Origin: an uncultured Chloroflexia bacterium
Lineage (GTDB): Bacteria; Chloroflexota; Anaerolineae; JAAYZQ01
Length of the DNA: 64,000 nucleotides
Assembly: GCA_963700285.1 (NCBI GenBank)
Contig: CAVOXA010000001.1
Location: forward strand, 96,001 to 160,000
Reading direction: 5' to 3'
Every line of letters starts with the position of its first letter. Position 1 is the stretch's first letter. Below are positions 19,698 through 48,429 of the stretch, one piece after another. The notes below the pieces were generated by a model. The model did not search any database and was not told the DNA's origin. It saw nothing but the letters and a program-made list of their open reading frames with translations. A program made the position numbers and the translations under genes.

Positions 19698-19730
19698 CAC
19701 CCAGCCCATTTCATGTTACAATTTTCACAG
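19694..19730 (+). promoter_or_regulatory. Sigma70 promoter of the Moco operon with an overlapping Rex-like palindrome
   Basis: TTGACA 19694, 17-bp spacer, TACAAT 19717; ATGTTACAATTTTCACAG at 19713-19730. Confidence 0.7.
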
Positions 19731-19765
19731 TTCCTTAAACAAGCAAGTGAAATAGCGGGTTTGTA

Positions 19766-19870
19766 GCATCTCCGAGCCTCGCCGCCTAAGGGTCCGAGTA
19801 GGCCTATGGGGTGAGGCCGGTAGGGTCTAGCTGGAAACGGCTATGCCTCCCACGCTTGGAAAGGAGATGC
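19766..19870 (+). ncRNA. Moco (molybdenum cofactor) riboswitch
   Basis: P1 GCATCTCC/GGAGATGC, CTCCGAG, CCTAAG-P3(GGTC/GGCC)-TATGG, P4 with GAAA tetraloop, ATGCCTCCC...GGAAAGGAG; lies upstream of tup/mos genes. Confidence 0.9.
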
Positions 19871-19889
19871 GCCCAGGGTAGTCAGGGCG

Positions 19890-19915
19890 CGGCGTCTCCA
19901 TGAGACGCCGTTTTT
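19890..19915 (+). terminator. Riboswitch intrinsic terminator 1
   Basis: CGGCGTCTC-cat-GAGACGCCG-TTTTT. Confidence 0.85.
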
Positions 19916-19943
19916 GATCGCCCAGGTTGTTGGATGACCTACA

Positions 19944-19979
19944 GTGGCGTCTCTTTACCTCCGAGACGCCGCTTTTTTT
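19944..19979 (+). terminator. Riboswitch intrinsic terminator 2 (same stem core)
   Basis: GTGGCGTCTC-9 nt-GAGACGCCGC-TTTTTTT. Confidence 0.85.
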
Positions 19980-20019
19980 GTGCCGGTACGAGGAACCTGC
20001 CTGCAAAAGGAAGAACAGG

Positions 20020-21381
20020 ATGGATCAAAGACGATACTATTTTTCTACGCGTGATCTGTTGATGATGGCTGCTCTGGCCGCCTTGGGCGGGGTGACCAGC
20101 ACCTACGTCAACGCCATCGGGGATCTCTTTCAGTCCGTTACTGGATTTGCCGGAACCACCCAGTGGGCCGCCGGCTTGCACGTCCTGTGGTTGACCCTGG
20201 CCGTGGGGCTGACTCGCAAGCAGGGGGCCGGTACCATCACCGGGCTGCTCAAGGGAGGGGTTGAGCTCCTTACCGGCAACACGCACGGCTTGTTGGTTGT
20301 GCTGGTGGATGTCGTGGCCGGCTTGCTGGTGGATCTAGGTTTCCTCCCTTTCAAAAAGAAGGACTCCCTGGCGGCCTACTGCCTGGCCGGAGGACTGGCC
20401 TCGGCCTCCAATGTGTTCGTCTTTCAGCTCTTTGCCTCGGTGCCCGCCGACACGCTGGCCTACTGGGCGCTGCTCTTGGTGGCGGCGGTGGCTTTTCTGT
20501 CTGGGGTGCTGTTCGCCGGGGTCCTGGCCCGAGCGCTGGTCAGTACCTTGCGCCGGGCAGGCGTAGTCAAAGACAGTTCTCCGGTCCCAATGAGCCGCAA
20601 AGCCTATCCCATCTTTCTGGTGGCCGGCACCCTGCTGGCAGTGGCTCTGACCCTATTCTTGCGACAGGCGCTGCGTGGTCCGACGACGGTGTACGTCGGT
20701 GGCGCGGTGGAGGCTGCCTACGACTATCCCCTGGAGAACGACGATATCGCGGAGGTCACCACCGAGGGTACACTGCGGAGTGTCACGACCAACTACACAG
20801 GCATACCGGTCCGTGAGCTCGTCGCCCGGGCCTTGCCGCGGCCCGGCGCTGCGCTGCTTCTGCTCCAGGCCTCCGATGGCTATGCCTTTTTCGTCAGTAT
20901 GTTGGAGGTGGACGAGAACGGCAGCCTGCTGCTGGCTCCGCAGGGCGAGGGCGAAGACGCTTCCTATAACGTGGTTGGAGCGCGAAACAGCAAGGCCTGG
21001 GTGCGGGGTGTCAGCGAGCTGGTTGTGATCGGCACGGCGACCCTGGAAGTGAGCGGCGCATTGGAGCAACCTGTACCCTTTGATCCAGATGATTGGCAGT
21101 TCGAGATGGACAGCATCCTCCTCAAGATAAGCGACAGCCCGCAAAAGTACCAGGGGGTTCCTCTGGGCAAGGTGTTGGGGGCAATGGAGCCACGGCCTGA
21201 GGCAGAGACCGTGGTGCTGGGCACAGAGGATGGGCCGGCCTCGCTTCCTCTGGACAAGGTACTAGGCGACGATAACCTGCGTCTATTCACCGTAATTGAT
21301 GGGGATCTGGTTTCCTTTGCCGTCGCTACTATGGACGGCGAGGTGATTGCCGCGCCGATAGTGTCCATCGAGGTGCGGTAG
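20020..21381 (+). CDS. ECF transporter S component fused to two oxidored_molyb-like extracytoplasmic domains
   Basis: N-terminal FSTRDLLMMAALAALGG with several TMs; C-terminal YTGIPVRELV...ASDGYAFFV...WVRGVSEL and YQGVPLGKVL. Start set at ATG 20020, downstream of the terminators. Confidence 0.8.
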   Translation: MDQRRYYFSTRDLLMMAALAALGGVTSTYVNAIGDLFQSVTGFAGTTQWAAGLHVLWLTLAVGLTRKQGAGTITGLLKGGVELLTGNTHGLLVVLVDVVAGLLVDLGFLPFKKKDSLAAYCLAGGLASASNVFVFQLFASVPADTLAYWALLLVAAVAFLSGVLFAGVLARALVSTLRRAGVVKDSSPVPMSRKAYPIFLVAGTLLAVALTLFLRQALRGPTTVYVGGAVEAAYDYPLENDDIAEVTTEGTLRSVTTNYTGIPVRELVARALPRPGAALLLLQASDGYAFFVSMLEVDENGSLLLAPQGEGEDASYNVVGARNSKAWVRGVSELVVIGTATLEVSGALEQPVPFDPDDWQFEMDSILLKISDSPQKYQGVPLGKVLGAMEPRPEAETVVLGTEDGPASLPLDKVLGDDNLRLFTVIDGDLVSFAVATMDGEVIAAPIVSIEVR

Positions 21382-21397
21382 GCTGTCTGGAACTCTG

Positions 21398-22870
21398 GTG
21401 GCTGTGGCAAAGATGATCGCCATTGAGGGGTTAAGCTACCGTTTTGAGGGCGGTAGGCGCGACGCCCTGTGCGATGTGACACTCTCGATCGTGCCAGGGG
21501 AATTTGTGGTTGTTACCGGGCCGTCGGGATGTGGCAAGTCGACCCTGGCCCTGGCCATTGGCGGCTACCTCTTTCGCCAGTATGATGGCCAGGCCAGCGG
21601 TACGGTGACTGTGGCTGGCATGGATGTGCAGGAACGTCCCATCTACGATGTGGCCGAGATCGTCGGATTGGTACAGCAGAATCCCGAGGCCCAGTTCTGC
21701 ACGCTTACGGTGCGGGACGAGGTAGCCTTTGGCCTGGAGAACCGATGCCTGCCCCGCGCCGAGATCCAGGAGCGCATCGCCTGGGCGCTGAGCATCGTCG
21801 GTGCGGAGCATCTGATCGAACGTTCTCTAGCAACTCTCTCGGGTGGGGAGAAGCAAAAAGTTGCTATCGCGGCCATGATGGCGGCCAAACCTCAGATTCT
21901 GATCTTTGACGAGCCGACCTCTAATCTGGATCCCTCGGCGACGGCCGAGGTGTTCGAGGTTATTGCCCACATCCGGGCCAAGGCTGGCATTACCGTACTG
22001 GTCATCGAGCACAAGGTGGACTATTTGCTATCCTTCGAGCCGCGGCTGCTGGCGATGGACGCCGGGTGCGTCGTCTACGATGGACCTTACGAAGGCTATG
22101 CCCGCCCCCTGGTCGGGCGGCCCAAGCAAGCGCTCCCCGTGCCTGACACTGGAGGGGAGCCGATCGTGCGGTTGCAGGGTGCCTGCCTGGGCTACAAGGG
22201 CCGCTCTGTGCTGAGGGATGTCTCCCTCGGCATCTGGCCGGGAGAGTTTGTGGCCGTGATGGGTGACAATGGTTCGGGCAAGACTACGTTTGTGCAGAGC
22301 TTGATGGGCTTGCTCAAGCCGGTGGAAGGCCGGGTCGAGGTTCTGGGCCAGGATATCCACGAGTCCTCCGTGTCGACGCTGGCCCGGAAGGTGGGCTTTG
22401 TCTTTCAGAACCCGGACCACCAGCTTTTCGCGGACAGCGTCTGGCAGGAAGCGGTGTTTGCCCTGCGCAATTTTGATCTCCTGGATGCTGCGGCCAGGGT
22501 ACGGGTTACAGAACTCCTGTCTCGCAGTGGCCTGGGCGACCGGGGCCAAGACCATCCTTACCGTCTGAGCTACGGACAGAAGCGCCGCTTGAACCTGATC
22601 TCTGTGCTGGGCTACGCGCCGCGCCTGATCTTGCTCGACGAAGTACTCATCGGGCAGGATCCGGACAACGCGGCTTTTCTGCTCGACCTGGTAAGAGAGC
22701 AGGTCGAGCAAGGCAGCGCGGCGGTCATGGTCAATCATGCGCCCAAGACGACCCGGCAGTATGCCAGCCGCGTGCTCTTTTTCGACGGCGGCAACGTTGT
22801 CGTGGATGCGGCTCCAGAGCAAGCTTTCGAGCAACTGAAATCGCTGGGAAAAGAAGCCTATGTCACCTGA
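21398..22870 (+). CDS. ECF transporter duplicated ATPase (A-A')
   Basis: Two Walker A motifs (GPSGCGKS, GDNGSGKT), QNP Q-loops, LSGGE and LSYGQ. Confidence 0.92.
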   Translation: MAVAKMIAIEGLSYRFEGGRRDALCDVTLSIVPGEFVVVTGPSGCGKSTLALAIGGYLFRQYDGQASGTVTVAGMDVQERPIYDVAEIVGLVQQNPEAQFCTLTVRDEVAFGLENRCLPRAEIQERIAWALSIVGAEHLIERSLATLSGGEKQKVAIAAMMAAKPQILIFDEPTSNLDPSATAEVFEVIAHIRAKAGITVLVIEHKVDYLLSFEPRLLAMDAGCVVYDGPYEGYARPLVGRPKQALPVPDTGGEPIVRLQGACLGYKGRSVLRDVSLGIWPGEFVAVMGDNGSGKTTFVQSLMGLLKPVEGRVEVLGQDIHESSVSTLARKVGFVFQNPDHQLFADSVWQEAVFALRNFDLLDAAARVRVTELLSRSGLGDRGQDHPYRLSYGQKRRLNLISVLGYAPRLILLDEVLIGQDPDNAAFLLDLVREQVEQGSAAVMVNHAPKTTRQYASRVLFFDGGNVVVDAAPEQAFEQLKSLGKEAYVT

Positions 22871-23651
22871 CTCCCAGTTTGCCTACTCCCGAATCACCTT
22901 TCAGCCCGGCGACTCTTTTCTCCACCACCTGCACCCACTGGTCAAGGCGGCTTGGTTGCTCTTTGGCACCATCTTTGTCTTTGTCGTACGCAGCCCCTGG
23001 CCGGTGATGGTGATGGTAGCCCTGCTGCTGGTAGCCTTTCCCCTGATCGGTGTGCGCTTGGGGCGGTTGCGCGGGGCGCGGCTGTTCATCACGACCGCGC
23101 TGTTCTTGGGAATCCTTCAGGTCATTTTCCGGCAGGAGGGGGCCATCCTGTTCCAACTTGGTCCGCTGACCGTGACGGCGGGCGGCGTGGAGGCTGGGCT
23201 GTACGTGGCCGGGCGCTTTCTGAGCGTCATCCTGCTCAGCTACCTGTTCGTGCTGACCACTGAGCCCAACGACCTGGCCTTCGCCCTGATGCGCGCCGGG
23301 CTGCCCTACCGCTATGGCTTTACTCTGATTACCGCCCTGCGTCTGGTACCAACCTTCGAGCAGGAGGGTCAGATCGTCTACAACGCCCAACTGGCGCGCG
23401 GCGTCCGGTACGACGTGAGAAGCCCGCGCCGTTTTCTGACGCTGGCCCGCCAGTTCTTTCTACCGCTACTGGTCTCGGCGCTGGGCAAGGTGGACAGCCT
23501 GTCGGTGTCGATGGAGGGCCGCTGCTTTGGAAAGTATCGAACGCGGACCTTTCTGCGGGAAGTTCGGGCAACGTGGCGGGATGTGGTGGCACTTAGCCTG
23601 CTGGTGCTGGCGATTGGGTTGCTGGTGGGCTGGCGGCTGGTGAGTTGGTAG
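22860..23651 (+). CDS. ECF transporter transmembrane component T (EcfT/CbiQ)
   Basis: SFLHHLHPLVK, ALRLVP, AQLARG, SMEGRCF. Confidence 0.9.
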   Translation: MSPDSQFAYSRITFQPGDSFLHHLHPLVKAAWLLFGTIFVFVVRSPWPVMVMVALLLVAFPLIGVRLGRLRGARLFITTALFLGILQVIFRQEGAILFQLGPLTVTAGGVEAGLYVAGRFLSVILLSYLFVLTTEPNDLAFALMRAGLPYRYGFTLITALRLVPTFEQEGQIVYNAQLARGVRYDVRSPRRFLTLARQFFLPLLVSALGKVDSLSVSMEGRCFGKYRTRTFLREVRATWRDVVALSLLVLAIGLLVGWRLVSW

Positions 23652-23690
23652 ATTGAGGACGTGGATACCCGGTACACGGGAGGGGAAGGC

Positions 23691-24614
23691 ATGTCAAAAC
23701 TGTGGTTGGTTCTACTGCTTGTCGGGGCATTGATCCTGGGTGGGATTGCCGTGGCGTTTGCGATGAATGCAAAAGCGATGGCGCCCGCACAGTCAGCGCT
23801 TCACTATCCATGGTCCCTGCTCGCCAAAGAGGCACAGACTATGAATGAGTGTGCCGAGTGCCACGAGACGGAGCATTTCCATACCTGCGCCTCGTGCCAC
23901 GACGACCACGGCTCGGCCGAGATGGCCAATGTGCCCTTTAACGCCCTGGTTCATCTGGCGGGTGATGTGCCTGAAGGCGGCTTTATCCCCGTTAATGAAA
24001 TCGTGCCCTACCGTGAGCAGCCCGGCACCCACGTGGCCCTCCTCGACTTTCTGTCCGCTAAGGGTGTGGACGACTTTGAAAGCGTCACCCTGGCCTCGCG
24101 CGATGGAGGGTTTGTGACGATCGACCGCGCCAATCTGACCGGAGAGGCGTTGTTGATGCCCCATGTGGATGGCATCCGCTTCGCTGCCGAGAACCTGCAC
24201 GTGTCCACGTGGCTCAAGGGCATCTCGCGTATTATCGTCGTGGGCGTGGATCGACCGCTGACGGTCGATGGCTACCACACATCGTTTGGGCGGTTGCTGA
24301 TGGGGCCGACCCGCTCGCTGACCATCGACCAGACCGACGTGATGCTCAAAAGCGAGGTCGATGGCGAGATTCGCAAAGCCAAGACAGCAGGCCGCATCGA
24401 GGGCGTACCTGTGGAAAAGATCGTCGAGGGGCCAGACTTTGGGCAACTGACCGTGTACGCTGCGGGTGGCCAAGAGCACGTCCTCTCGGCCAAAGACGCC
24501 AGAGGTGCGCTCCTGGCCCAACTGCGGGGCCGCCCCGAGGTCGTACTGGTGCTGCCGGAACTGGGCCGGGCAGAGTGGGTAACGGGCGTGGTAGAGATTT
24601 CGTCGGAGGAGTAG
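23691..24614 (+). CDS. Exported protein with two CxxCH motifs and oxidored_molyb-like domains
   Basis: Signal/anchor helix; CAECH and CASCH; VTLASRDGGFV...WLKGISRIIV; IEGVPVEKIV...WVTGVVEI. Confidence 0.7.
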   Translation: MSKLWLVLLLVGALILGGIAVAFAMNAKAMAPAQSALHYPWSLLAKEAQTMNECAECHETEHFHTCASCHDDHGSAEMANVPFNALVHLAGDVPEGGFIPVNEIVPYREQPGTHVALLDFLSAKGVDDFESVTLASRDGGFVTIDRANLTGEALLMPHVDGIRFAAENLHVSTWLKGISRIIVVGVDRPLTVDGYHTSFGRLLMGPTRSLTIDQTDVMLKSEVDGEIRKAKTAGRIEGVPVEKIVEGPDFGQLTVYAAGGQEHVLSAKDARGALLAQLRGRPEVVLVLPELGRAEWVTGVVEISSEE

Positions 24615-24617
24615 TCA

Positions 24618-25808
24618 ATGTCCCGTCATCTCAGTACACGGGCTGGTTCACAGTCCAGTAGTAGCGGCGGCGGACAGTGGTCCGCCGCGAGCATTCGAAT
24701 CGTATCCTTGGTTCTACTCGTTGTGTTATCGGGCTGTGGTTCTACCTGGAAAGCGACAGTGGTGGCGCCGGACGGTAGCGACTATTTTGTGGACAGCAAG
24801 GTCCTCGACGGCCTGGCCGACTTTGCCGAGGAAGACAAGGGCATGCCCCTGGAGCGCGTGCTGTACAGTGCGGGGCATCGCGCCATCGAGCACCTCGTGG
24901 TCGTGGATGCCGATGGAGTGCGCCGTGCGTTCGACTGGGCCGATGCAGCAGAAGAGGCATGGTGGCGACAGGATGGACAGATCGTCCTCAACGGTGAGGT
25001 ACTCCCGGCGGCGCGGATGGAGGTCGAGCCGCCAGCGCTGCTAGACCGGGTCAGTGCGGAAATCACCGACATCGCGCCGACGGCGGCTGCCGCCCTGGGC
25101 ATCCCAGCTCCGGTGCAGGCCAGTGGTCAGGCGCTGGATGAAGCTACGGCTGACCAGGTGCTGCTCCTGTTCCTGGATGGTTTTGGTTACTCGCGCTATC
25201 GCGAGGCCCTGGATGGTGGACTTGTCCCCAACCTGGCCGCCCTTGGCGAGCCGCAGGTGGCCCTGACCGTCTATCCGCCTTGTACCAGCGTCGGCTCGGC
25301 GGCCTTGCTCACTGGGGCACAGCCGGAAGCGAATGGGGTGGACCGGCGGGGCATTCGCAAGACAGAAACGGAGACTCTGTTCGATGTCGCCGAGGCAGCA
25401 GGGCTGGACGTCGTTGCCGTTGAGGGCGATGCGCTGGCCTTCAACCTGCGCAATTCAGACATGCAGCTTTCGGGAGACCGGGACGGGGATGGCAGCACCG
25501 ACGACAACGTGCTGGCCAATGCGCTGACAGTGCTGGACGAGGGAATGCCCGATCTGTTCTACGTACATTTTCACGGCATCGACGATGCCGGGCACACCTA
25601 CGGCCCAGGCACGCCAGCGGAAGAGGCTGTCATCCGCGAGGTAGACGCAGCCGTGGGCCAGCTACTGGGGAGGCTACCCTCGGATACGCTTATCATCGTT
25701 TTTGCTGACCACGGCATGCACCATGTGATAGAAGAAGGGAGGCTGGGAAATCACGGGCACCTGATCGAGCGGGACATGTTCATACCCATCTGGACAGTGG
25801 GGAAGTGA
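24618..25808 (+). CDS. Lipoprotein of the alkaline phosphatase / nucleotide pyrophosphatase superfamily
   Basis: Lipobox LSGC; FLDGFG, PPCTSVG (Thr nucleophile), HGIDDAGH, ADHG, GNHG. Confidence 0.82.
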   Translation: MSRHLSTRAGSQSSSSGGGQWSAASIRIVSLVLLVVLSGCGSTWKATVVAPDGSDYFVDSKVLDGLADFAEEDKGMPLERVLYSAGHRAIEHLVVVDADGVRRAFDWADAAEEAWWRQDGQIVLNGEVLPAARMEVEPPALLDRVSAEITDIAPTAAAALGIPAPVQASGQALDEATADQVLLLFLDGFGYSRYREALDGGLVPNLAALGEPQVALTVYPPCTSVGSAALLTGAQPEANGVDRRGIRKTETETLFDVAEAAGLDVVAVEGDALAFNLRNSDMQLSGDRDGDGSTDDNVLANALTVLDEGMPDLFYVHFHGIDDAGHTYGPGTPAEEAVIREVDAAVGQLLGRLPSDTLIIVFADHGMHHVIEEGRLGNHGHLIERDMFIPIWTVGK

Positions 25809-25894
25809 GGAAAAGGATATACTTGCGACAAGTAAACAGGCGAATATCAAGTGCGCAGCCAAGGAATGAAAGGATCATAAAGGGAGGCAAACAA

Positions 25895-26776
25895 ATGGAG
25901 AAAGTAAGAAGGTACTCTGTGTTGGGTGTGGTTGTGCTGGTAGGGGTTCTGCTGGCCGCGGGCCTGGCGGGCTGTGGGGGTGGCAGTGCGCCTGACGTGG
26001 ACTGGGAACTGGCGGTCAGCGGGGACGTTGCGACGCCTCTGACGCTAACCTACGCCAAGCTGGCCGAGATGCCCCAGACGGACCTGGAAAACATCCTGAT
26101 GGAAAAGTCGGTGGGCGAGGATACGACAGGTTCCTGGAGTGGCGTGGATCTGGCAAAGCTCCTTGAGGATGCGGGGGCAAGCGCCGAGTATGCCAGCATC
26201 ACCGCGATAGCCGCCGATGGCTATGCCGTCGAGATCTCTAACGAGGAAACGCAGGACGGTATCGTGGCCCTGAAGGAGAACGGGGAGTGGATCGCGGAGG
26301 CGGATCCGGACCACGGCCCCATCCGCCTGGTCTTTTCCCATACACCGGCCAACCGCTGGGTGTTCCAGATCCAGGAGATTCAGGTGAATGACATGGCCCA
26401 GGGGGGCGGGGGCATTCCCGAGGACGCAGCGCTCAAGATTACGGGCAGCGTCGAAACCGAGGTGGGATGGGCTGAGGACAAGCTGCGCAGCTTTGATACC
26501 ATCGAGGTTGAATCGACCAACAAGGATGGCGAGACCAAGACCTATACCGGCGTAGCTATCAACGACCTGTTGGGCAAAGCAGGGCCAACGAGCGAGGCGA
26601 CAACCCTAGTTCTGATCGCTGACGATGGCTATTCGGCGGAAGTGGCTCTGGTCGAGGTGCAAGCCTGTGAGGATTGTATCGTCTCCTTCCGCAACCAGGG
26701 CGGCTTTAGCACAGTCCTGCCAGGGTTCCCGGGCAATGCTCAGGTCAAGGGCGTAGTCGAGATCCAGGTCAAGTAG
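25895..26776 (+). CDS. Lipoprotein with two oxidored_molyb-like domains lacking the Mo-ligating Cys
   Basis: Lipobox LAGC; WELAVSGDV..PLTLTY...WSGVDL...AADGY...HGPIRLV...WVFQIQEI; second domain with CEDC. ATG 25895 after GGAGG. Confidence 0.8.
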   Translation: MEKVRRYSVLGVVVLVGVLLAAGLAGCGGGSAPDVDWELAVSGDVATPLTLTYAKLAEMPQTDLENILMEKSVGEDTTGSWSGVDLAKLLEDAGASAEYASITAIAADGYAVEISNEETQDGIVALKENGEWIAEADPDHGPIRLVFSHTPANRWVFQIQEIQVNDMAQGGGGIPEDAALKITGSVETEVGWAEDKLRSFDTIEVESTNKDGETKTYTGVAINDLLGKAGPTSEATTLVLIADDGYSAEVALVEVQACEDCIVSFRNQGGFSTVLPGFPGNAQVKGVVEIQVK

Positions 26777-26786
26777 GAGAGATGTC

Positions 26787-27500
26787 ATCGACGAGATCTT
26801 GAGCGGCCTGCTCGAGGCCATCCGCCTGATTGTCACCCTGGACGAAGCCCTATTCGAGATCATAGGCCTATCGCTGCGCGTGTCGGGCACCGCGCTGCTG
26901 TTCAGCACTGTGATCGGCATCCCACTGGGCGCGGTTATGGGCATGAGCCGCTTTGCCGGGCGCAAAATGGTCATTGCCCTGCTCTACACTGGCATGGGCT
27001 TTCCGCCGGTGGTCGTCGGCCTGTTCGTCTACCTGATGCTGTCGCGCAGCGGCCCGCTGGGGCAACTCAACTCACCACTGATCCCGGCCCTGTTCACGCC
27101 GGCGGCTATGGTCGTGGCCCAGACGATCATCTCTTTTCCGCTGGTGGCCGGGTTCACCATGGCTGCCGTCATGGGCGTGGATCCGGCCTTGCGCCAGCAG
27201 GTCCAATCGCTGGGTGCCACCCGCTGGCAGACGACGGTGGCGATCCTGACCGAGGCGCGGATAGGCGTGATTGTATCGGTCATTGCCGGTTTTGGCAGCA
27301 TCATCTCCGAGGTGGGCGCAGTGATGATGGTCGGCGGCAACATCGAGGACCGCACGCGGGTGCTGACTACGGCCATCGTCCTGGAGACCCGCAAGGGCAA
27401 CTTTGACCTGGCCATCGCCATCGGTGTGGTCCTGCTGGGCATCGCGTTCCTGACCAACGTGGGCATGCTGCGCCTGCAAGGGAGGACGTTCGACGAATGA
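26787..27500 (+). CDS. tupB: Tungstate ABC transporter permease
   Basis: MGFPPVVVGL, GFGSIISEVGAVMMVGGNI..RTRVLTTAI. Start uncertain (ATC 26787 or TTG 26799). Confidence 0.9.
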   Translation: MDEILSGLLEAIRLIVTLDEALFEIIGLSLRVSGTALLFSTVIGIPLGAVMGMSRFAGRKMVIALLYTGMGFPPVVVGLFVYLMLSRSGPLGQLNSPLIPALFTPAAMVVAQTIISFPLVAGFTMAAVMGVDPALRQQVQSLGATRWQTTVAILTEARIGVIVSVIAGFGSIISEVGAVMMVGGNIEDRTRVLTTAIVLETRKGNFDLAIAIGVVLLGIAFLTNVGMLRLQGRTFDE

Positions 27501-28228
27501 GCGACACGGTCTATCGTGTGCAGAACGTCAGCAAAGAGTACAACGGCCGGCGCGTACTGCAGGTACAGGAGCTGGAGATCGAGCGTGGTGAGATCCTTGC
27601 CCTGGTCGGTCCCAGCGGCGCGGGCAAGAGTACGCTGCTGCGGCTGCTCAACTTTCTGGAGCCGCCCACCAGCGGAAGCATTCGCTTCCTGGACGCCGAG
27701 TTCAGCGCCAACCAGCCGATGCCTCTGAAACACCGACGTCGGGTGACAACGGTCTTTCAGCGGCCCCTGCTGCTCAACCGCAGCGTGCAGGCCAACGTTG
27801 GCTACGGTCTGAGCTTGCGTGGTCGCCGCAAATCAAGCGACGAGATCGAGAGAGCACTGGAGCAGGTTGGCCTGCTGCATCTGACGCACCAGCGGGCGCG
27901 GACCCTGTCGGGCGGCGAGGCACAGCGGGTGGCCCTGGCGCGTGCCATCGTCCTCCAACCAGATGTGTTGCTGCTGGACGAGCCGACGGCCAACCTGGAT
28001 CCCTACAACGTGGGCCTGATCGAAGAGATCGTGACCAACCTGAATCGAGAACGAGGTACCACGCTGGTGCTGGTGACCCACAACGTCTTTCAGGCCAAGC
28101 GGCTGGCCCACCGGGTAGCCTTGATGCTGGACAGCCAGATCGTGGAAGTGGCCGGAGCCAGGACCTTTTTCGAATCACCGCAGGACTCGCGCACGGCAGC
28201 ATTTGTGCGCGGCGAGATGGTCTATTGA
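27497..28228 (+). CDS. tupC: Tungstate ABC transporter ATPase
   Basis: GPSGAGKS, LSGGEAQR, DEPTANLD; position between tupB and tupA. Confidence 0.85.
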   Translation: MSDTVYRVQNVSKEYNGRRVLQVQELEIERGEILALVGPSGAGKSTLLRLLNFLEPPTSGSIRFLDAEFSANQPMPLKHRRRVTTVFQRPLLLNRSVQANVGYGLSLRGRRKSSDEIERALEQVGLLHLTHQRARTLSGGEAQRVALARAIVLQPDVLLLDEPTANLDPYNVGLIEEIVTNLNRERGTTLVLVTHNVFQAKRLAHRVALMLDSQIVEVAGARTFFESPQDSRTAAFVRGEMVY

Positions 28229-28267
28229 GGCAAGAAATCCCATATCGCAAGAAACAAGGAGGAAACG

Positions 28268-29582
28268 ATGTCAAAGAAAGCATGGATCCTGTTGAGTGTT
28301 TTCGTGCTGTTGGCGAGCATCCTGGTTGGCTGCGGCAGTACCCCTGAGCCGGCCCAGGCGCCAGAGCCCACTGCTATCCCGCCGACAGAGGCGCCAGAGC
28401 CTACCGTTCCACCGCCGACCGAGGCGGCCGAACCAACGGAGCCAGGGAAGCTGATTCTGGCCACGACCACCAGCACCGAGAACTCGGGTTTGCTGGCCTA
28501 TCTCCTACCTCACTTTGAAGAGGAATTCGGTGTGGAGATAGAAGTCATTGCCGTGGGCACCGGCCAGGCTCTCCAGCTGGGCGAGGATGGCAATGCTGAC
28601 GTGCTGATGGTGCATGCCCGCACCAGGGAGGACGCCTTTATGGATGCGGGTCACGGCGTGCGCCGCGAGGACGTGATGTACAATGACTTTGTCATCGTCG
28701 GCCCGCCCGATGACCCGGCAGGCATCCAGGGAATGGGAAGAGCCACCACGGCCATGGCCATGATCGCTGAAGCCGAGGCTGCCCTTTGTCTCGCGCGGCG
28801 ACGATTCGGGCACCCATACCAAGGAGAAGGCGATCTGGGCAGAGACGGGCGTCGAGCCAGCAGGCGACTGGTACATCTCTGCCGGGCAGGGCATGGGCGC
28901 CGTGCTGACCATGGCCGACGAGCAGCAGGCTTATACCCTCAGCGACCGGGCTACCTATCTGGCCCGCACGCTGGAGGGAACCGACCTGGAGATCCTGGTC
29001 GAAGGCGACCCCATCCTGTTCAATCCGTACGGTGTCATGGCCGTCAACCCGGACAAGAATCCCCAGATCAACAACGAGCTGGCCAACAAGTTCATCGACT
29101 GGTTGGTCTCGATGCCTACCCAGGAAATGATCGGCGAGTTCGGCGTGGCCGAGTTTGGCGCGCCCCTCTTTACACCCGACTCGGTAGCCTGGCGCGAGGC
29201 GCAGGGAGGTGGCGAGGAGCCGGCCGGTGATATGGCCCTCAGGATAACGGGCAACGTCAGCCAGGAAGTTGGTTGGACTGAAGAAGAGGTGCGGGCCATG
29301 GAGACCATGGAGGCAGAGTCTACCAACAAGAGCGGTGAGACCAAGACCTACACCGGCGTGTCTGTGAACAAGTTGCTAGAAGAGGCCGGCGTCGCCGACG
29401 GTGCGACCGCGGTCGTCTTTGTCGCCGACGATGGCTACACCGGTGAGCTGACCTTGGAAGAGGTGCAAAACTGCGCCGACTGTATCGTCTCCTTCCGAGA
29501 GCAGGGGGGCTTTAGCACAGTAATGCCTGGTTTCCCCGGGAACGTCCAGGTGAAGGGCGTGATCGAGATCCAAGTCAAGTAG
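28268..29582 (+). pseudogene. tupA: Tungstate-binding lipoprotein TupA with C-terminal oxidored_molyb-like domain, split by a 1-nt frameshift (may be an assembly error)
   Basis: LATTTSTENSGLL, AVGTGQAL, MYNDFVIVGP in the first frame. FVSRGDDSGTHTKE, GMG..L..ADE..AYTLSDRATY and LFNPYGV continue in the next frame after GCCCTTT (28781-28787). Confidence 0.88.
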
Positions 29583-29589
29583 GGGAATA

Positions 29590-29621
29590 GACCTGGCAGG
29601 TATTCTGATACCTGCCAGGTC
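29590..29621. terminator. 14-bp hairpin after tupA (terminator or REP-like)
   Basis: GACCTGGCAGGTAT-tctg-ATACCTGCCAGGTC. Confidence 0.6.
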
Positions 29622-29628
29622 GAAACGT

Positions 29629-29657
29629 TTGACGGCTTGCCCGATCCTCACTATACT
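29629..29657 (+). promoter_or_regulatory. Sigma70 promoter for the Mo-storage gene
   Basis: TTGACG, 17-bp spacer, TATACT. Confidence 0.65.
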
Positions 29658-29709
29658 GTGCCTGCGCCACTCAGGCGCGCGACATCAGAGCCAGGAAAGT
29701 GAGATTGCT

Positions 29710-30537
29710 ATGAGCTTGAAACGAGACGAGAGCGGCCGGCTTCACATCGACACGCCGCTGATGGCCGAGTCGTTGATGGACAAGAAACTATTGCGAGATA
29801 CCGAGACCGAGACAGTCTTTCGCCCGCTACCGGACCTGAACGTGGTCAAGCTGGGCGGACAGAGCATCATCGACCGGGGGCGGAGCGTGGTACTGCCTTT
29901 GCTGGACGAGATCGTAGCTACTCGGGCTGAGCATCCGCTGTTGATCATGACGGGCGGGGGAACCCGCAGCCGCCATGCCTATGCCATCGCCCTGGATCTG
30001 GACATGCCCACCGGCGTGCTGGCCAAGCTGGGCGCCAGCATTAGCGAGCAGAACGCGTTGATGCTCTCGATCCTTTTGGCGCCGCACGGCGGGATCAAGA
30101 TCGGCCATGACGATGTGGTCAAGCTACCGGCCTATCTGGCCATGGGCATCATTCCCGTGATGCACGCCATGCCACCCTACAGCCTGTGGGAGGAGCCGGC
30201 AGAGCAGGGGCGCATTCCGCCGCACCGCACCGATTCCGGAGCTTTTCTTACCGCCGAGGTGATCGGCGCCCGGCGCTGCATTCTAGTCAAAGATGAGCCG
30301 GGGCTGTTCACCGCTGATCCCAAGAAGGATCCAGATGCCAACTTTATCTCAGAGGTTGAGGTGGGCGAACTGCTGGCCATGGATCTGCCCGATCTGCCTG
30401 TGGAGCGAGCAATGCTGCGCGCCCTGTCGGGCGCGCGCAGCGTGCACGAGGTGCTGCTGGTCAATGGCCGGGAGCCAGGCCAGTTGACCCGTGTACTGGC
30501 CGGGGAGAATCCCGGGACGCGCATTTACCGGGCTTGA
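29710..30537 (+). CDS. Molybdenum storage protein subunit (MosA/MosB-like, amino-acid-kinase fold)
   Basis: VVKLGGQSIIDRG, GGGTRSRHAY, GRIPPHRTDSGA, VKDE.GLFTADP. Confidence 0.88.
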   Translation: MSLKRDESGRLHIDTPLMAESLMDKKLLRDTETETVFRPLPDLNVVKLGGQSIIDRGRSVVLPLLDEIVATRAEHPLLIMTGGGTRSRHAYAIALDLDMPTGVLAKLGASISEQNALMLSILLAPHGGIKIGHDDVVKLPAYLAMGIIPVMHAMPPYSLWEEPAEQGRIPPHRTDSGAFLTAEVIGARRCILVKDEPGLFTADPKKDPDANFISEVEVGELLAMDLPDLPVERAMLRALSGARSVHEVLLVNGREPGQLTRVLAGENPGTRIYRA

Positions 30538-30579
30538 TGCCAGTTGGGCAAGGCCCGGTGTTGGCTGTTGCCGGTCAAG

Positions 30580-30912
30580 CTACTTGCGACCAGCGCGGCG
30601 AGGGCCGCGCGGCCGTGGGGGCTGCACGGTAAAGCTGCCGCCCTCGATCTGCAAGGCACGTCCTTCAACCAGCGCCTGGGCGACCTGGCGGCGGGCCTGG
30701 GCGACGATACGCTGAAAGGTGGAGCGAGAGATGGCCATCTGGGCCGCCGCCTCCGCCTGGGTGAGGCCTTCCAGGTCTGCCAGGCGGAGTGCTTCCAGCT
30801 CTTCGTAGAGCAGGTTGAGGCGCGTCAGCTCGTTCAGCGGTACGCCAGCCGGCTTGTAGATGGCTGGCCGGGGCCGATTCTCCAGGGAACGCTGCTTGCG
30901 GGGACGAGGCAT
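30580..30912 (-). CDS. DUF134 family putative DNA-binding protein
   Basis: MPRPRKQR...YKPAG...EELEALRLADLEGLTQ.EAA..M.ISRSTFQRI...AR..VA.ALVEG. Confidence 0.9.
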   Translation of the reverse strand: MPRPRKQRSLENRPRPAIYKPAGVPLNELTRLNLLYEELEALRLADLEGLTQAEAAAQMAISRSTFQRIVAQARRQVAQALVEGRALQIEGGSFTVQPPRPRGPRRAGRK

Positions 30913-30914
30913 GC

Positions 30915-31163
30915 CTAGCCTTTGTCCTTCTTTCGGCGACGCCGCCCCCGGCCGCCTTCGCCTTCAGGCTCATGGCCCTCTTCGCCGCGGGGCAGGTATA
31001 CGATCTCGGCACCAACTTCGGTGGCGATCTTTTCCAGTTCTGCTCGCCGAATGCGGGTCTTGAATACTTTTAGATCGGCGCCCTGGACTGCGATGATGGC
31101 AAAGCGGGGTCGCCCGGCACCCTGGCCAACGTGGCGACGGGAACGCACAAAGATTTTGCTCAT
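30915..31163 (-). CDS. Small basic hypothetical protein co-transcribed with DUF134
   Basis: GAGGAG RBS, 82 aa, 2-nt gap to the DUF134 gene. Confidence 0.7.
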   Translation of the reverse strand: MSKIFVRSRRHVGQGAGRPRFAIIAVQGADLKVFKTRIRRAELEKIATEVGAEIVYLPRGEEGHEPEGEGGRGRRRRKKDKG

Positions 31164-31212
31164 AGGGTTCTCCTCTCGGTCCGGCGCGCAAGCGCTCGGA
31201 TGATGATAGATA

Positions 31213-31264
31213 GTTATGGGTATTTGCCCAAAACTATTATACCCTGAAGGAAGGGGTTTGTCAA
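31213..31264 (-). promoter_or_regulatory. Consensus sigma70 promoter with an imperfect palindromic operator at the start site
   Basis: Minus-strand TTGACA (31259-31264), 17-bp spacer, TATAAT (31236-31241); palindrome GTTATGGGTATTTGCCCAAAAC at 31213-31234. Confidence 0.75.
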
Positions 31265-31267
31265 GTC

Positions 31268-31954
31268 ATGCTCTTCATTGGTTTGGATGATACAGATACA
31301 CTTGAATCCCGGGGGACTGGACATCTGGCCCGGCAGATTGCTGCTACGCTGGCCGCCGACCATACCTTGTTGGGCGTGACGCGCCACCAGTTGTTGGTGG
31401 ACCCACGCGTGCCCTGTACCAGGAACAATAGCTGCGCGGCCATCGTTCTAGATGGGGACGGTGATGTTGATATGGCTAGTCTGCTGGCTCGCGTGTGGGC
31501 GCTGATGATGGATGACTTTCAGTTGGGCAGCGATCCGGGTCTGTGCATCGCCCACACGGTGCCCGATGCCGTCACCGCATTTGGGCGCAGGGCTCAGCGC
31601 CACCTGATCGCCCAGTCTGAAGCACGAAACCTGGCTGCCGCCCATCAGATTCCTCTGTTGGGGCTGGGCGGTACGGAGGATGGCGTGATTGGCGCCCTGG
31701 CGGCCGTAGGACTGGCGGCCAGTGGTGAAGATGGCCGCTACGTCTTGGTGGGCAGCTCTCGGGAACTGAACGGCTTGCGCCCGGTGTCTGAGCTCTTGCA
31801 GGCAGGCATCGCTGTCGTGCAGACCGCGGCCGGTGAACCGGTGCTGGATGGGCTGGTTCAGACTGACAAGTTGCGACCGGCGCGGCGCGGCACCCGCCCC
31901 ATCGCCGTCGTCGAGTGGGCAGGTGACCATTGGTTGCCACTCAAGCTTGACTAG
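31268..31954 (+). CDS. TiaS N-terminal-like (DUF1743-related) protein
   Basis: IGLDDTD..SRGTG.LAR, RHQL...RVPCTRNNS, SDPGLC, GTEDGVIGALAAVG; no OB or Zn-ribbon domain. Confidence 0.7.
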   Translation: MLFIGLDDTDTLESRGTGHLARQIAATLAADHTLLGVTRHQLLVDPRVPCTRNNSCAAIVLDGDGDVDMASLLARVWALMMDDFQLGSDPGLCIAHTVPDAVTAFGRRAQRHLIAQSEARNLAAAHQIPLLGLGGTEDGVIGALAAVGLAASGEDGRYVLVGSSRELNGLRPVSELLQAGIAVVQTAAGEPVLDGLVQTDKLRPARRGTRPIAVVEWAGDHWLPLKLD

Positions 31955-32060
31955 CGTGCTCACGTCTGGTCTGGAACGGGGGTGGGGCGGTTCGTGCTGA
32001 ACTACCTGCGAACTGCAATCCGTCTTGAGCATCATACGGGGTTGGTTTGTACCTAAGGAT

Positions 32061-33488
32061 ATGACTCAGATTGTACGGGCCGAGCGCGCCGCCTATCGCT
32101 ATCCACAGAACAATCATGGTCTGAGGCTCATCTCCCTGGCCATTGAGCCGGGGGAGCGGGTGCTGGTTGCCGGGCCGTCAGGCTGTGGCAAGAGTACCCT
32201 GGTTCGCTGCCTGACGGGCCTCATCCCCCACCTCTATCATGGTACGCTGGAGGGTGAAGTGTGGCTGGATGGGCTGCGTACAGTCGATGCGCCCATGTGG
32301 CAACTGGCCGAAAGGGCCGGGCTGGTTTTTCAGAATCCTGCCGCCCAGATGCTGGCCCAGTCTGTCGAAGAGGAGATCATCTTTGGTTTGGAGAACCTGG
32401 GCCTGTCGCGAGAGATAATCCGCGAGCGATTGGATGCCACGCTGGACCTTTTTGGTCTGGAGTCGATGCGCAAACGGACGCCCCAGACCCTGTCCGGTGG
32501 AGAGCAGCAGAAACTGGCTCTGGCGGCTACTACAGCCCGGCGTCCACAGGTCCTCGTGCTGGATGAGCCACTCTCGATGCTGGATGGTACAGCGGCAACC
32601 GAGCTGGTTCAGCACCTGACCCACCTGGCGGACGCGGGTACGACGGTCGTCGTGTGCGAGCACCGTGAGGAGTACCTCGGGACGGTGCCCAAGCTGCGTA
32701 CAGTAAGCCTCGAGGGTCCTACTGTCAAAGAGGCCGCGATCCCAAAGCTTGAGCCCTATCTCCATGAGCCTCAAGCTCGGAGGCTAGAAGTGAAGGGACT
32801 GACGGTGGCCTTGGGCGGGCAGCCTGTCCTCCAGGATCTGAGCTTCTCGGCAGAGATGGGCCATGTGGTGGCCGTGGTGGGTCGCAATGGCGTGGGCAAA
32901 ACTACGCTCCTTCGAGCCTTGGTCGGCCTGCAAAAACACGAAGGATCTATCACCATGAACGGTGGCCGTCCTGACCTGGGTATGGTCTTTCAAAACGCCG
33001 ATCTGCAGCTCTTCAATGCCACCGTCCGCGACGAAATCCTCTACCGGGTGCCCGAACCGGACATGGATCTCTATGGCTGGTTGCTGGAGGCGCTGGGACT
33101 TGCTCACTACGAGGGTGTGCCGCCCCTTCTGCTGAGTGAAGGCGAAAAGAAGCGGGTGGCGCTGGCCACGGTCCTCATGCGCCGGCCGCGCCATGGCCTG
33201 CTGCTCGATGAGCCGTCGCTGGGACAGGACGCGGCTCACAAGAAGCAATTGATCCGGGTGGCTCGCACGCTGGCCGAGGCTGGACAACTGGTGGTACTCA
33301 CCACCCACGATCTGACGCTGGCGGCGCAGGCTGACCGCGTGGCGCTGTTGGGGTCGGATGGCTTTGTGGCCCATGGACCGCCGGCTGAGGTCATGGACGA
33401 CGATGCCTCATGGGCACAGCTTGGCCTTTCGGTGCCCGACTGGGTCAAGCCCTCGGGCGTAAGGGCCGTGGAGGGGCTGGAAGTGTGA
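32061..33488 (+). CDS. Second ECF transporter duplicated ATPase
   Basis: GPSGCGKS and GRNGVGKT; FQNP; LSGGE and LSEGE. Confidence 0.9.
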   Translation: MTQIVRAERAAYRYPQNNHGLRLISLAIEPGERVLVAGPSGCGKSTLVRCLTGLIPHLYHGTLEGEVWLDGLRTVDAPMWQLAERAGLVFQNPAAQMLAQSVEEEIIFGLENLGLSREIIRERLDATLDLFGLESMRKRTPQTLSGGEQQKLALAATTARRPQVLVLDEPLSMLDGTAATELVQHLTHLADAGTTVVVCEHREEYLGTVPKLRTVSLEGPTVKEAAIPKLEPYLHEPQARRLEVKGLTVALGGQPVLQDLSFSAEMGHVVAVVGRNGVGKTTLLRALVGLQKHEGSITMNGGRPDLGMVFQNADLQLFNATVRDEILYRVPEPDMDLYGWLLEALGLAHYEGVPPLLLSEGEKKRVALATVLMRRPRHGLLLDEPSLGQDAAHKKQLIRVARTLAEAGQLVVLTTHDLTLAAQADRVALLGSDGFVAHGPPAEVMDDDASWAQLGLSVPDWVKPSGVRAVEGLEV

Positions 33489-34213
33489 TCAGACTGGGTA
33501 CGACCGGCCGAACGCGGAACCTGGTACTGCAGGAGGCTTCGCCCCTGCGCCAGGCCGATCCTCGTACCAAGTTGGCGCTGAGCCTGTGCGCCTCGTTGGC
33601 AGTAATGCTGACCCTGGAGAAGCTGGTGGTCTTTATTGCCTTCTACGCGCTGCTGCTGCTCTGGGCGCGGCTTTTGCCCGATGCAGCGCAGCAGATCTGG
33701 CGGCTCAAGTGGGTGCTCGTCGTGCTCTTTGTGGTGGATTGGCTGTTCGTAGGCCTGGATCTGGCCGTCATTGTGACCCTCAGGCTGATTCTGTTGGCGG
33801 CGGCCTTTTCCCTCTTTTTCGCCACAACCACGCCAGGTGAGCTGCGCCTGGCCCTGGAATGGTTTCGTGTGCCCTATCGATACGCCTTTGGGCTGGCCCT
33901 TGCTTTCCAGAGCGTGGGCCTGCTGGATGACGAGTGGCGGGGCATTATCGAGGCACAGCGTGCTCGGGGAGCATGGCCCTCCAAGCCACATTGGCGGGAG
34001 ATACTGGACTATGTACGAGATCTGGTGGCGCTGTCGGTGCCGGCCGTTGTGATGACCACCAAACGTGCCTGGGCCATGAACGAGGCGGCCTATGCACGGG
34101 GATTCGATTCGCCCCACCGGCGCTCCTACCATCAATTGACAATGGGCTGGCTGGACTGGGTGCTGTTGGTTGGTACGGTCGCTGCCACAGCGGCATTACT
34201 GGCCTGGAAGTAG
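33485..34213 (+). CDS. Second ECF transporter T component
   Basis: SPLRQADPRTK, AQRARG, AYARGF; GTGA overlap with the ATPase gene. Confidence 0.88.
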   Translation: MIRLGTTGRTRNLVLQEASPLRQADPRTKLALSLCASLAVMLTLEKLVVFIAFYALLLLWARLLPDAAQQIWRLKWVLVVLFVVDWLFVGLDLAVIVTLRLILLAAAFSLFFATTTPGELRLALEWFRVPYRYAFGLALAFQSVGLLDDEWRGIIEAQRARGAWPSKPHWREILDYVRDLVALSVPAVVMTTKRAWAMNEAAYARGFDSPHRRSYHQLTMGWLDWVLLVGTVAATAALLAWK

Positions 34214-34306
34214 TGTCCGAGCCGCAGGTGGTTGGGGCAGCACTGTGTGCGAGTTCGCTGTCCAGGCATGTCGTGAAACTGGAGGCTGCGTAAATAGGGA
34301 GGCTGT

Positions 34307-34816
34307 ATGGCTCAACGAACCAGGATTTTGATCGGGGTTGCGATGCTCATCATTTTGGTGGTCGCGGTGCTGGGTATCGATCTGCTGCAGCGAGCCTCAA
34401 GAGAGCCCCAGGACCTTGCCAAAGGCGAGCCCACAGTTGCGGCGGGCAGCATCCCCATCCGCCTGGATGGCCGGCTGATGGGCAGTTTTGGCCCCACTGA
34501 CCTGGATACTCTCGAGATGGTGAGTTTTGTCGAAGCAGAGGAGGGCAAGACCGAGGAGGGCTGGCTGCTGCGAGATGCCCTCCTGCTCCACGTGGACGAT
34601 CAAGAACTCGAGCCGGACATGGTCATCGTCGTCAGCAGCAGCAGCCGGGACAAGGCAGCCGAACTGACCTGGGCGGAGGTGGATGACCCGGCCAACTGGG
34701 TGATGTTTGATCTCTCGGGCCGGGGTACGCTCAAGCTGGTGTCGGTGCTGGAGAGGCTGGACACGAGGGATGAGTGGGTGCAGGATGTGGATGGGATCGA
34801 GATCTCGAGCCCGTGA
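34307..34816 (+). CDS. Membrane-anchored protein with a divergent oxidored_molyb-like domain
   Basis: N-terminal TM; EEGWLLRDAL...TLKLVS...EWVQDVDGIEI resembles the domain repeated in this island. Confidence 0.55.
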   Translation: MAQRTRILIGVAMLIILVVAVLGIDLLQRASREPQDLAKGEPTVAAGSIPIRLDGRLMGSFGPTDLDTLEMVSFVEAEEGKTEEGWLLRDALLLHVDDQELEPDMVIVVSSSSRDKAAELTWAEVDDPANWVMFDLSGRGTLKLVSVLERLDTRDEWVQDVDGIEISSP

Positions 34817-34885: not shown

Positions 34886-35434
34886 ATGAAGGAGCGGTAT
34901 TTTTCGACTTTTGAACTCATCTTGATCGCGCTTTTTGCCGCACTGATTGTGGTGTCCAAGATCGCGCTGCGTCTGCCGCTACAATTGTCCGGCCACTCGG
35001 GGATCTTTTGGATGGCCATCGTCATCGTCGCCACTGGGGTTGTGCCCAAGGTGGGGACGGCCAGTCTGGTGGGTCTCACCTCTGGCTTGGTAGCTGCTTT
35101 CCTGGGCATGGGCGACTTTGGCGCGCTAAACACCTTCTTGTCGTATACGGCCGTGGGTGTCAGTACCGATCTGGCACTCCTGGTGCTGGGCCGCAACCCG
35201 GAAAACCCGGTCGTCGCCATGTTGGCGGGCGCCATTGGTCACTTTGGCAAGTTTCTGGTCAAGTATGGCTTTGCCACCCTGGCAGGAGCGCCGGTAGGGA
35301 TTGTCGTCCTCGGCCTGGCTCGGGGCATTGTGGGCTATATTGTCTTTGGGGCGCTGGGCGGACTGCTCGGCGCGTTCACGCTGCGGGCGCTGCGGCGAGC
35401 TGGCTTTTTTGCCTACCTGGCCGAGAAGAAATAG
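34886..35434 (+). CDS. Second ECF transporter S component
   Basis: YFSTFELILIALFAAL, GHSGIFW, about 6 TMs, 182 aa. Confidence 0.85.
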   Translation: MKERYFSTFELILIALFAALIVVSKIALRLPLQLSGHSGIFWMAIVIVATGVVPKVGTASLVGLTSGLVAAFLGMGDFGALNTFLSYTAVGVSTDLALLVLGRNPENPVVAMLAGAIGHFGKFLVKYGFATLAGAPVGIVVLGLARGIVGYIVFGALGGLLGAFTLRALRRAGFFAYLAEKK

Positions 35435-35435
35435 C

Positions 35436-35479
35436 GCTCAAAAACAGGGCCACCCCATGGGGTGGCCCTGTTTTTGAGC
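35436..35479. terminator. Bidirectional terminator (perfect 44-bp palindrome)
   Basis: GCTCAAAAACAGGGCCACCCCA|TGGGGTGGCCCTGTTTTTGAGC between convergent genes. Confidence 0.85.
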
Positions 35480-38999: not shown

Positions 39000-39001
39000 G
39001 C

Positions 39002-40720: not shown

Positions 40721-40794
40721 ACCCAGACTCCAAGACCTGTGGTTCTCAAGATAGGGATGGTGAAGGCCGGGTGCGGGCTATGGGATGTTGGACG

Positions 40795-48118: not shown

Positions 48119-48429
48119 CTTAGCCTCGATCTGGTCCAGGACTCGGGTACCCATGTACCTGTGATGACACATGGGTTGCCGCTGTGAGACTGGCCCCGCC
48201 TGCATGTTCGCCTGGTCTAGAAGCTCTTGGAGTTATCCGCTGGGTTCTTGTTTTGGCTCTCACAATGTCAGCCGGATGACAGCCGTGAGAGCAAAGTATA
48301 CCATGCCTCAGCCTGTTGGGCAAGTTGCTTTTGGAAACGTGGGATATCGCACCCGCAGGCACGTCAGCATCCTCGCTCCTTGAAGGGTTTCTAACCGTAC
48401 CTGGGGGAAACAGAAATGCCGTGAAGGAT

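Follow-up and report, generated by a model that had tools for sequence, protein, structure and literature searches.

What a bacterium gains by exporting up to nine copies of a sulfite oxidase (SUOX)-type domain from one gene cluster is the question raised by a stretch of 64,000 nucleotides, here called the window, from the genome of an uncultured Chloroflexia bacterium (contig CAVOXA010000001.1, positions 96,001 to 160,000). The copies are borne by six membrane-anchored proteins encoded in and around an energy-coupling factor (ECF) transporter operon that follows a riboswitch of the molybdenum cofactor/tungsten cofactor (Moco/Tuco) class. The tungsten or molybdenum (W/Mo) cofactor is sensitive to oxygen, and the general view is that every microbe using it makes its own. 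In the current analysis the ECF cluster is considered a fairly probable importer of the metal-loaded W (or Mo) pterin cofactor, in which SUOX-fold domains lacking the molybdenum-ligand Cys would serve as surface capture modules and not as enzymes. Proteins are referred to below by the start positions of their genes (Table 1), and tandem domains as d1 and d2.

The riboswitch and the pattern of gene loss in related genomes point to the W/Mo cofactor as the cargo. The aptamer is situated between a promoter-like site and a terminator-like hairpin ahead of the ECF operon, scores above the cut-off of its covariance model (Rfam RF01055) and lacks the P3 stem, as in the Tuco type. P3-less aptamers go with tungsten metabolism, and repression by the Moco riboswitch of E. 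coli requires the cofactor pathway and molybdate (PMC2408646). The S, A-A' and T components are encoded together, as in group I ECF systems. PF09819, the family of the S-component, has been assigned to all 120 listed of 396 longer S-component homologues, and S-components of this family carry thiamine-precursor annotation.

A search of genome contigs identified 77 related loci, nearly all labelled Chloroflexota, and the ECF operon is conserved in Anaerolineae. Among 46 loci with enough upstream DNA, 41 have S, the S tail, T, a diheme protein and a phosphoesterase ahead of the lipoprotein; the tup genes are found in 8/77 loci and the 34307 module in 9/77. The diheme protein, used as the marker gene, is encoded in 31 of 400 genomes of the class and in none of 250 genomes sampled evenly from the phylum. 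Of 45 loci, 35 have the riboswitch directly 5' of S, and in two more it stands ahead of a tup-S operon. Since the riboswitch profile derives from 27 hits among these loci, four were rechecked with Rfam and all four pass; a short junction with P3 absent is seen in 20 of the 27 pattern hits. Six loci (L021, L040, L043, L045, L060 and L075) have a PadR-family regulator gene directly upstream of S and no riboswitch hit.

Cofactor-pathway genes have been counted in 50 carriers, comprising the window's genome and 49 of the 64 first-listed marker loci, picked for the S gene or for long contigs. All 50 encode AOR-family genes, against 111 of the 250 genomes in the phylum sample, which is free of the marker gene. 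MoaC was detected in 24 carriers, MoaA in 22, MoaE in 13, MoeA in 30 and TupA in only 17, and in 19 carriers all five were undetected. The single-copy control gene RRF was found in 49 of the 50, including all 19 of these pathway-less genomes, one of which has 2.64 of its 2.7 Mb on a single contig. In five of the 19 that were probed further, ModA is absent, the AORs are full length and one PF00994 hit, presumably CinA, and one PF00384 hit are seen in each. The iron-sulfur and DxxG-type motifs that we take to mark AORs are kept in most of 12 checked. The riboswitch is kept in 18 of 18 pathway-less carriers with upstream DNA, and a cell unable to make the sensed ligand must import it. A Moco riboswitch, a vitamin-type importer and cofactor-dependent enzymes thus occur together in genomes in which the genes for making the cofactor were not detected, which argues for cofactor uptake, and the loss of both MoeA and tungstate transport argues that the imported form is metal-loaded. 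We infer the identity of the ECF substrate from the riboswitch and the gene loss only.

Within the class sample (n = 400) MoaC is missing in 12 of 31 carriers (for 8 of them as read from a list of matches) and in 31 of 369 non-carriers, with a Fisher p of 2e-5 that overstates the association because kin are not independent. Of the 111 AOR-positive non-carriers of the phylum sample, 4 are without MoaC. The unpublished genomes G038, G162, G181 and G621 were used only in control tallies.

The original prediction held that one SUOX-like domain recurs on six exported proteins, and proposed comparison with PF00174 and MsrP as the check. Eight of the nine copies are supported as a SUOX/PruR fold, three by structure prediction, two by Pfam match, near-identity or strong profiles, and three by profiles alone; in the predicted models the domains share the oxidored_molyb fold with the MsrP/SorA family. 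The two domains of lipoprotein 25895 match PF00174 (E 9e-22), and its AlphaFold model (mean predicted local distance difference test score, pLDDT, 85.7) resembles SoxC (Z 17.9), SorA (Z 17.2) and PruR (7rkb, Z 16.1 on d2; 7kp2, Z 14.6 on d1), the next unrelated row being at Z 7.0. SUOX-family enzymes and PruR are the only high-score matches of this model. In most relatives the two-domain lipoprotein is represented by two adjacent single-domain genes, the fused form being found in one clade only. The tail of the TupA-like protein matches PF00174 (E 8e-8) and 25895 d2 (phmmer E 4e-54). Protein 34307 has no Pfam match and no profile match to the neighbouring copies (hhalign at most 18%); the best Foldseek match of its model (pLDDT 84.3) is PruR 7kom (E 6e-5), with ten SUOX/PruR rows at VIA Z 7.9-12.6 and the next row at 4.5.

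The other copies were compared by hhalign with 25895 profiles that had been cleaned of mixed rows. The S-component tail reaches 98-99.8% for d1 and 92% for d2, and 33 of 41 of its homologues match PF00174. The 23691 domains reach 84% (d1) and 96% (d2), with a PF00174 match in none of their 53 members. Searches of PDB sequences with the profiles of the 23691 domains and of the S tail returned nothing meaningful. The N-terminus of 24618, at 48-87%, is the weakest of the nine, and is the part of the recurrence claim that does not stand firmly; reversed-template controls reached at most 23%. From its sequence it is probably a degenerate, shortened SUOX-like copy. Atlas look-ups for 34307 and for this N-terminus gave scores <0.9, which are leads only, and no plasmid match was obtained for the S fusion. 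Outside the cluster, profiles of the nine domains match the window's genome once, weakly, at an ordinary PF00174 gene on C6.

The absence of Cys at the molybdenum-ligand position, also claimed earlier, is borne out. Glu70 of 25895 d1, in a column of E (12), D (7) and Q (1) among 20 sequences, is the residue that aligns with the ligand Cys of Thermus sulfite oxidase, and a conserved Cys is absent from that place in all seven domain alignments that were counted. The description of the copies as Cys-less is correct only for this position, as 25895 d2 and the TupA tail bear a CxxC, possibly a disulfide, that is invariant in 20/20 full-length homologues. A proposal that this CxxC type tracks tungstate use was rejected, as it is present, mostly as a separate gene, in 16 of the 19 pathway-less carriers.

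A PDB search led to PruR as the closest known protein. Pterin binding by a Cys-less, non-catalytic SUOX fold is already known from PruR (PMC11194511), an exported protein that binds simple pterins via N102, Y104 and W160 and signals to DcpA (PMC11194511, PMC13259868). N102 and Y104 align to the DGY motif, which had been described as part of the recurring pattern and is intact as Asp-Gly-Tyr in four of the nine copies only (S d1, 25895 d1, 25895 d2 and the TupA tail); the other five lack the Asn/Asp-x-Tyr site, and the copies are therefore not equivalent. Asp replaces Asn102 in two sequence groups (PMC13259868), which may include proteins like the domains of the cluster. The Pro-Trp70 motif that PruR has at the Cys position is not seen, no PW occurring within the aligned region of the domains. 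In chicken sulfite oxidase the cofactor phosphate is bound via His283, Arg288 and Lys301 (PMC5856855). Judged by motif spacing against nitrate reductase and SorA, the Arg288 equivalent is kept in 25895 d1 and 23691 d1, and the Lys301 equivalent in 23691 d1 (62/62), in 25895 d2 (20/20) and, as Arg, in S d1 (38/44), whereas PruR is without the phosphate-ligand His and Arg. A full phosphate site in 25895 d1 was considered and rejected, the His position being variable. At the level of sequence, the conserved basic residues at cofactor-phosphate positions hint at a phosphorylated pterin as ligand.

Three features do not figure in the original prediction: the riboswitch with its promoter-like site and terminator-like hairpin, the two heme-c motifs of 23691 and a complete alkaline-phosphatase-type site in 24618. 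Both CxxCH motifs of 23691 are conserved (61-62 of 62 at each position). In 24618 the residues D187, T223, D322, H326, D364, H365 and H379 are conserved in 60-62 of 62 homologues, and we take them to be the metal ligands and nucleophile; with them the two-metal ligands and the Thr/Ser nucleophile of the alkaline-phosphatase superfamily, of the nucleotide pyrophosphatase/phosphodiesterase (NPP)-like kind, are all present. That the diheme and phosphoesterase genes are essential was rejected, both being missing within 18 kb from the two minimal versions described below. The tupA gene is split in the current assembly by a frameshift near 28786, likely an assembly error; seven of eight related genes are unbroken and fuse TupA to one or two SUOX-fold domains, and the eighth is likewise frameshifted.

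The likeness to PruR of Agrobacterium, Vibrio and Klebsiella (PDB 7kos, 7kou, 7kom, 7kp2 and 7rkb) lies in an exported, shortened SUOX fold without the molybdenum-ligand Cys. PruR is a single domain, paired with DcpA or a kinase regulator, and takes simple pterins, whereas the domains of the cluster are multiplied, fused to transport or enzyme proteins, and carry in several copies the basic residues mentioned above. The dcpA/DTB regulator operon context of PruR is not found here, the cluster genes being transport and enzyme genes. With the SUOX-family enzymes (MsrP/YedY, SorA, SoxC, chicken sulfite oxidase) the domains share the fold and GPxR and WVK-type motifs, but they have a shortened hairpin and no dimerisation domain and measure about 115-130 residues. 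YkoE-type group I ECF vitamin transporters, and riboswitch-controlled cobalamin ECF systems with surface proteins, resemble the cluster in having S, A-A' and T in one operon, in PF09819, in an upstream coenzyme riboswitch and in occurring where synthesis is missing. The cluster differs from them in its Moco/Tuco riboswitch, the two-domain outside tail on S and its diheme, phosphoesterase and lipoprotein partners. Caenorhabditis elegans is reported to take up protein-bound bacterial Moco, so that intact cofactor can pass between organisms; there the recipient is an animal and no bacterial transporter takes part.

Literature searches, with most subscription papers outside reach, found no bacterial importer of the W/Mo cofactor, no ECF substrate of this kind and no newer work on the Moco/Tuco riboswitch ligand. 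The accessible portions of PMC13328260 and PMC10265488 hold nothing on cofactor import, and coenzyme-uptake classes have been tabulated without Moco (PMC3766115). Peng et al. have listed 305 bacteria that have cofactor-dependent enzymes (orphan molybdoproteins) and no pathway, for which they offer unknown synthesis or metal-free enzymes, not uptake, and call for tests (PMC6147048).

In the proposed mechanism, cofactor-replete cells would stop transcription at the terminator-like hairpin behind the aptamer. When transcription proceeds, the SUOX-fold domains, which follow signal anchors or lipoboxes, would attach to the pterin end of cofactor that neighbours release and would leave the metal unlocked. 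Of the copies, 25895 d1 and S-tail d1, the types kept in the minimal versions, would be the likeliest to do so. The S-component would take the cargo from its own tail, and the A/T module would flip it inside for the AOR enzymes. As accessory steps, the phosphoesterase might trim dinucleotide forms such as molybdopterin guanine dinucleotide to the molybdopterin form, and the diheme protein might keep the cofactor reduced. Tandem copies could conceivably clamp the two pterins of the tungsten cofactor. In the window's genome salvage would supplement synthesis, because moaA, moaC and tup genes are present, together with a moeA of broken frame and 17 AOR-type matches, no MoaE hit being obtained; for its pathway-less relatives salvage would be the only source. 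The original prediction of non-catalytic pterin or cofactor receptor modules that serve transporters is thus supported in part, as to fold, loss of the molybdenum-ligand Cys, export signals and link to transporters, with ligand binding and hand-over to the transporter being predictions.

Several observations weigh against this reading of the cluster. The similarly shortened pocket of PruR has been reported too short for Moco (PMC11194511), and the domains are without the Cys-bearing hairpin, as in PruR; clamping of two pterins by tandem copies would ease the objection. Trp160 of PruR is reached by no alignment (W155 or F157 of 25895 are candidate equivalents), the three phosphate ligands occur together in no single copy, and the His283 position varies among relatives (H, K, A, D or M). 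Tungsten specificity is assigned to P3-less aptamers by gene correlation (PMC2408646), and a riboswitch hit near or ahead of S is absent from 8 of 45 loci. The tree of the diheme protein needs six changes for the pathway-less state, four of them forced, and 13 of the 18 pathway-less carriers in it form one Anaerolineaceae grade, so that their counts are not independent; some of the scattered losses may be assembly gaps. About half of the carriers, including the window's genome, are able to start the pathway themselves.

Some of these observations would suit other ligands. A metal-free precursor, molybdopterin or cyclic pyranopterin monophosphate (cPMP), might be imported and finished by the cell, which would agree with a short PruR-like pocket that fits a smaller ligand, with the 7 of 50 carriers that have MoeA without MoaA and MoaC, and with the tup genes lying within the same cluster in 8/77 loci. 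The 19 carriers that also lack MoaE, MoeA and TupA could, by known routes, neither convert cPMP nor insert metal, and such a precursor is considered unlikely. A slightly less likely possibility still is that the domains and the ECF transporter are an alternative to TupABC that collects tungstate or molybdate, whether free, chelated or polymeric. The same SUOX-fold domain is indeed fused to TupA, a tungstate binder (in 7/8 related loci), the same riboswitch class also controls oxyanion transporters (PMC2408646), and the many carriers without TupA may need another metal route; yet the 19 genomes that lack pterin synthesis and MoeA would have no use for oxyanion alone and still keep the operon and riboswitch. 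The known ligands of the fold are pterins, and the thiamine-precursor annotation of PF09819 S-components likewise speaks against an oxyanion.

The pathway-less genomes could instead use an unknown synthesis route or cofactor-free AOR homologues, with the operon moving or sensing some other phosphorylated pterin or vitamin. Both options were offered by Peng et al. for about 300 orphan-molybdoprotein bacteria (PMC6147048), and AORs are also found in 12 of the 25 MoaC-negative non-carriers tested (of 31, four less than 90% complete and two without identification having been omitted), which counts against cofactor import as well. Five of these 12 were examined. Two (G462 and G538) carry a minimal version of the system. 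It consists of the riboswitch, S with two domains, A and T, along with separate lipoproteins of the 25895 d1 type that are also led by riboswitches; neither a diheme nor a phosphoesterase gene occurs within the 18 kb read. The remaining three, in assemblies of 320-520 contigs, showed no such ECF, a further point against import: G411 has only a TupA fusion near an AOR-like gene, and G419 and G470 only strong full-length PF00174 hits. Among the four exceptions in the phylum sample, G002 has a different ECF together with just one lipoprotein, which lacks Cys, and a Moco RNA below threshold, and nothing comparable was seen in the other three. As the operon stays behind a Moco-type riboswitch in pathway-less genomes and most of the AORs checked retain their motifs, this explanation is held to be improbable. 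More improbable still is that the domains act as signalling receptors of the PruR kind, informing a membrane regulator of pterins outside the cell. They share the fold, the exported location and the aligned Asn/Asp-x-Tyr site, but no DcpA-like or sensor-kinase gene was seen in the cluster or among the recurrent neighbours read, and the domains are fused to transport proteins.

The cluster joins a known transporter class and a known fold variant, probably with a new substrate. The wider proposal, to which we give an even chance, is that anaerobes trade the finished W/Mo cofactor like a vitamin, by means of a dedicated ECF importer, repurposed SUOX domains, a trimming phosphoesterase and a protective diheme cytochrome, that Brevefilum and Pelolinea lineages are auxotrophic, and that a share of the orphan-molybdoprotein genomes is thereby explained. 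The question of cofactor uptake becomes testable, as the cluster provides a named candidate for the importer and candidates for the binding proteins and the auxotrophs. If true, it would add a new substrate class for ECF transporters and a new cross-fed nutrient in digesters and sediments, suggest a possible reason why these Anaerolineae resist culture, and offer proteins that might stabilise free cofactor.

Table 1. Features of the cluster, with positions in the window
Positions	Strand	Feature	Support or remark
19694..19722	+	Promoter-like site, sigma-70-type	11/12 consensus matches, TG extension
19758..19882	+	Moco/Tuco riboswitch aptamer without P3 stem (tungsten-associated type)	RF01055 73.4 bits, E 8e-16; P3 columns are gaps
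19889..19980	+	Terminator-like hairpin and T run (19889-19911), then second hairpin and T run	
20020..21381	+	ECF S-component (YkoE-like, PF09819) with extra membrane helix and two SUOX-fold domains (20683-21036, 21037-21378)	
21398..22870	+	ECF double ATPase (A-A')	TIGR04520 and TIGR04521 over cut-off
22860..23651	+	ECF T component	PF02361 E 1e-30
23691..24614	+	Membrane-anchored protein; two heme-c motifs (CxxCH), two divergent SUOX-like domains (23943-24251, 24252-24611)	
24618..25808	+	Predicted lipoprotein: possible degenerate SUOX-like domain (24747-25031) and alkaline-phosphatase-superfamily (phosphodiesterase/nucleotide pyrophosphatase) domain	PF01663 E 3e-22
25895..26776	+	Predicted lipoprotein, two SUOX/PruR-fold domains (26003-26392: DGY, GPIR, NRWVF; 26426-26773: DGY, CxxC, QVK)	
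26799..28228	+	tupB and tupC, tungstate-type ATP-binding cassette (ABC) permease and ATPase	TupB is best named match, under its cut-off; ABC ATPase
28268..29582	+	TupA-like binding lipoprotein, frameshift near 28786, C-terminal SUOX-fold domain (29232-29579)	
29711..30537	+	Amino-acid-kinase-fold protein	PF00696; 4/77 related loci
31268..31954	+	TiaS-TCKD-like protein, first gene of second ECF module	PF22641; 11/77 loci
32025..34213	+	Second ECF ATPase and T component	
34307..34816	+	Membrane-anchored single SUOX/PruR-fold domain (34451-34813), no Cys	
34886..35434	+	Second ECF S-component (PF09819)	20-bp hairpin behind, 35436-35479

The amino-acid-kinase-fold protein at 29711 is presumably a relative of the molybdenum storage protein. 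The stand-alone TiaS-TCKD-like protein precedes the second ECF module in most of the loci that have the gene. Divergent from this module is a DUF134 regulator region (30580-31264, minus strand) with an imperfect TGGG...CCCA palindrome near 31216-31232, and a promoter with 12/12 consensus matches (31264-31236, minus) faces the DUF134 regulator gene and an 82-residue gene of no family. Upstream of the cluster, a CydD/CydC-like ABC exporter pair (16171-19697) is common only to the nearest relative, L001, and is therefore regarded as a neighbour and not as part of the system.

In L046 a cobalamin riboswitch (11426-11564) is located 3' of the operon and precedes a second set of ECF-type genes and an AOR gene observed in its lineage. 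After the operon, Brevefilum-type genomes (L046, and L052, L057 and L059 downstream) have a second ECF and an AOR gene, together with a cobalamin riboswitch and a surface protein with prenyltransferase repeats, and this region is regarded as a two-cofactor salvage island. The window's genome (G000) has a second Moco-type riboswitch pattern (C1:1378788-1378894) before a frameshift-ridden operon that is formate-dehydrogenase-like, as labelled from reading the translation. Elsewhere in the window, a separate cluster (38121-41985, minus) encodes a coiled-coil protein of no family and two proteins that resemble solute-binding proteins, one of the two being fused to a von Willebrand A domain. The gene at 45707-48205 (minus) encodes an 832-residue protein that has about 240 additional residues at its N-terminus and a glutamate-mutase-associated MutL family domain (PF13941).

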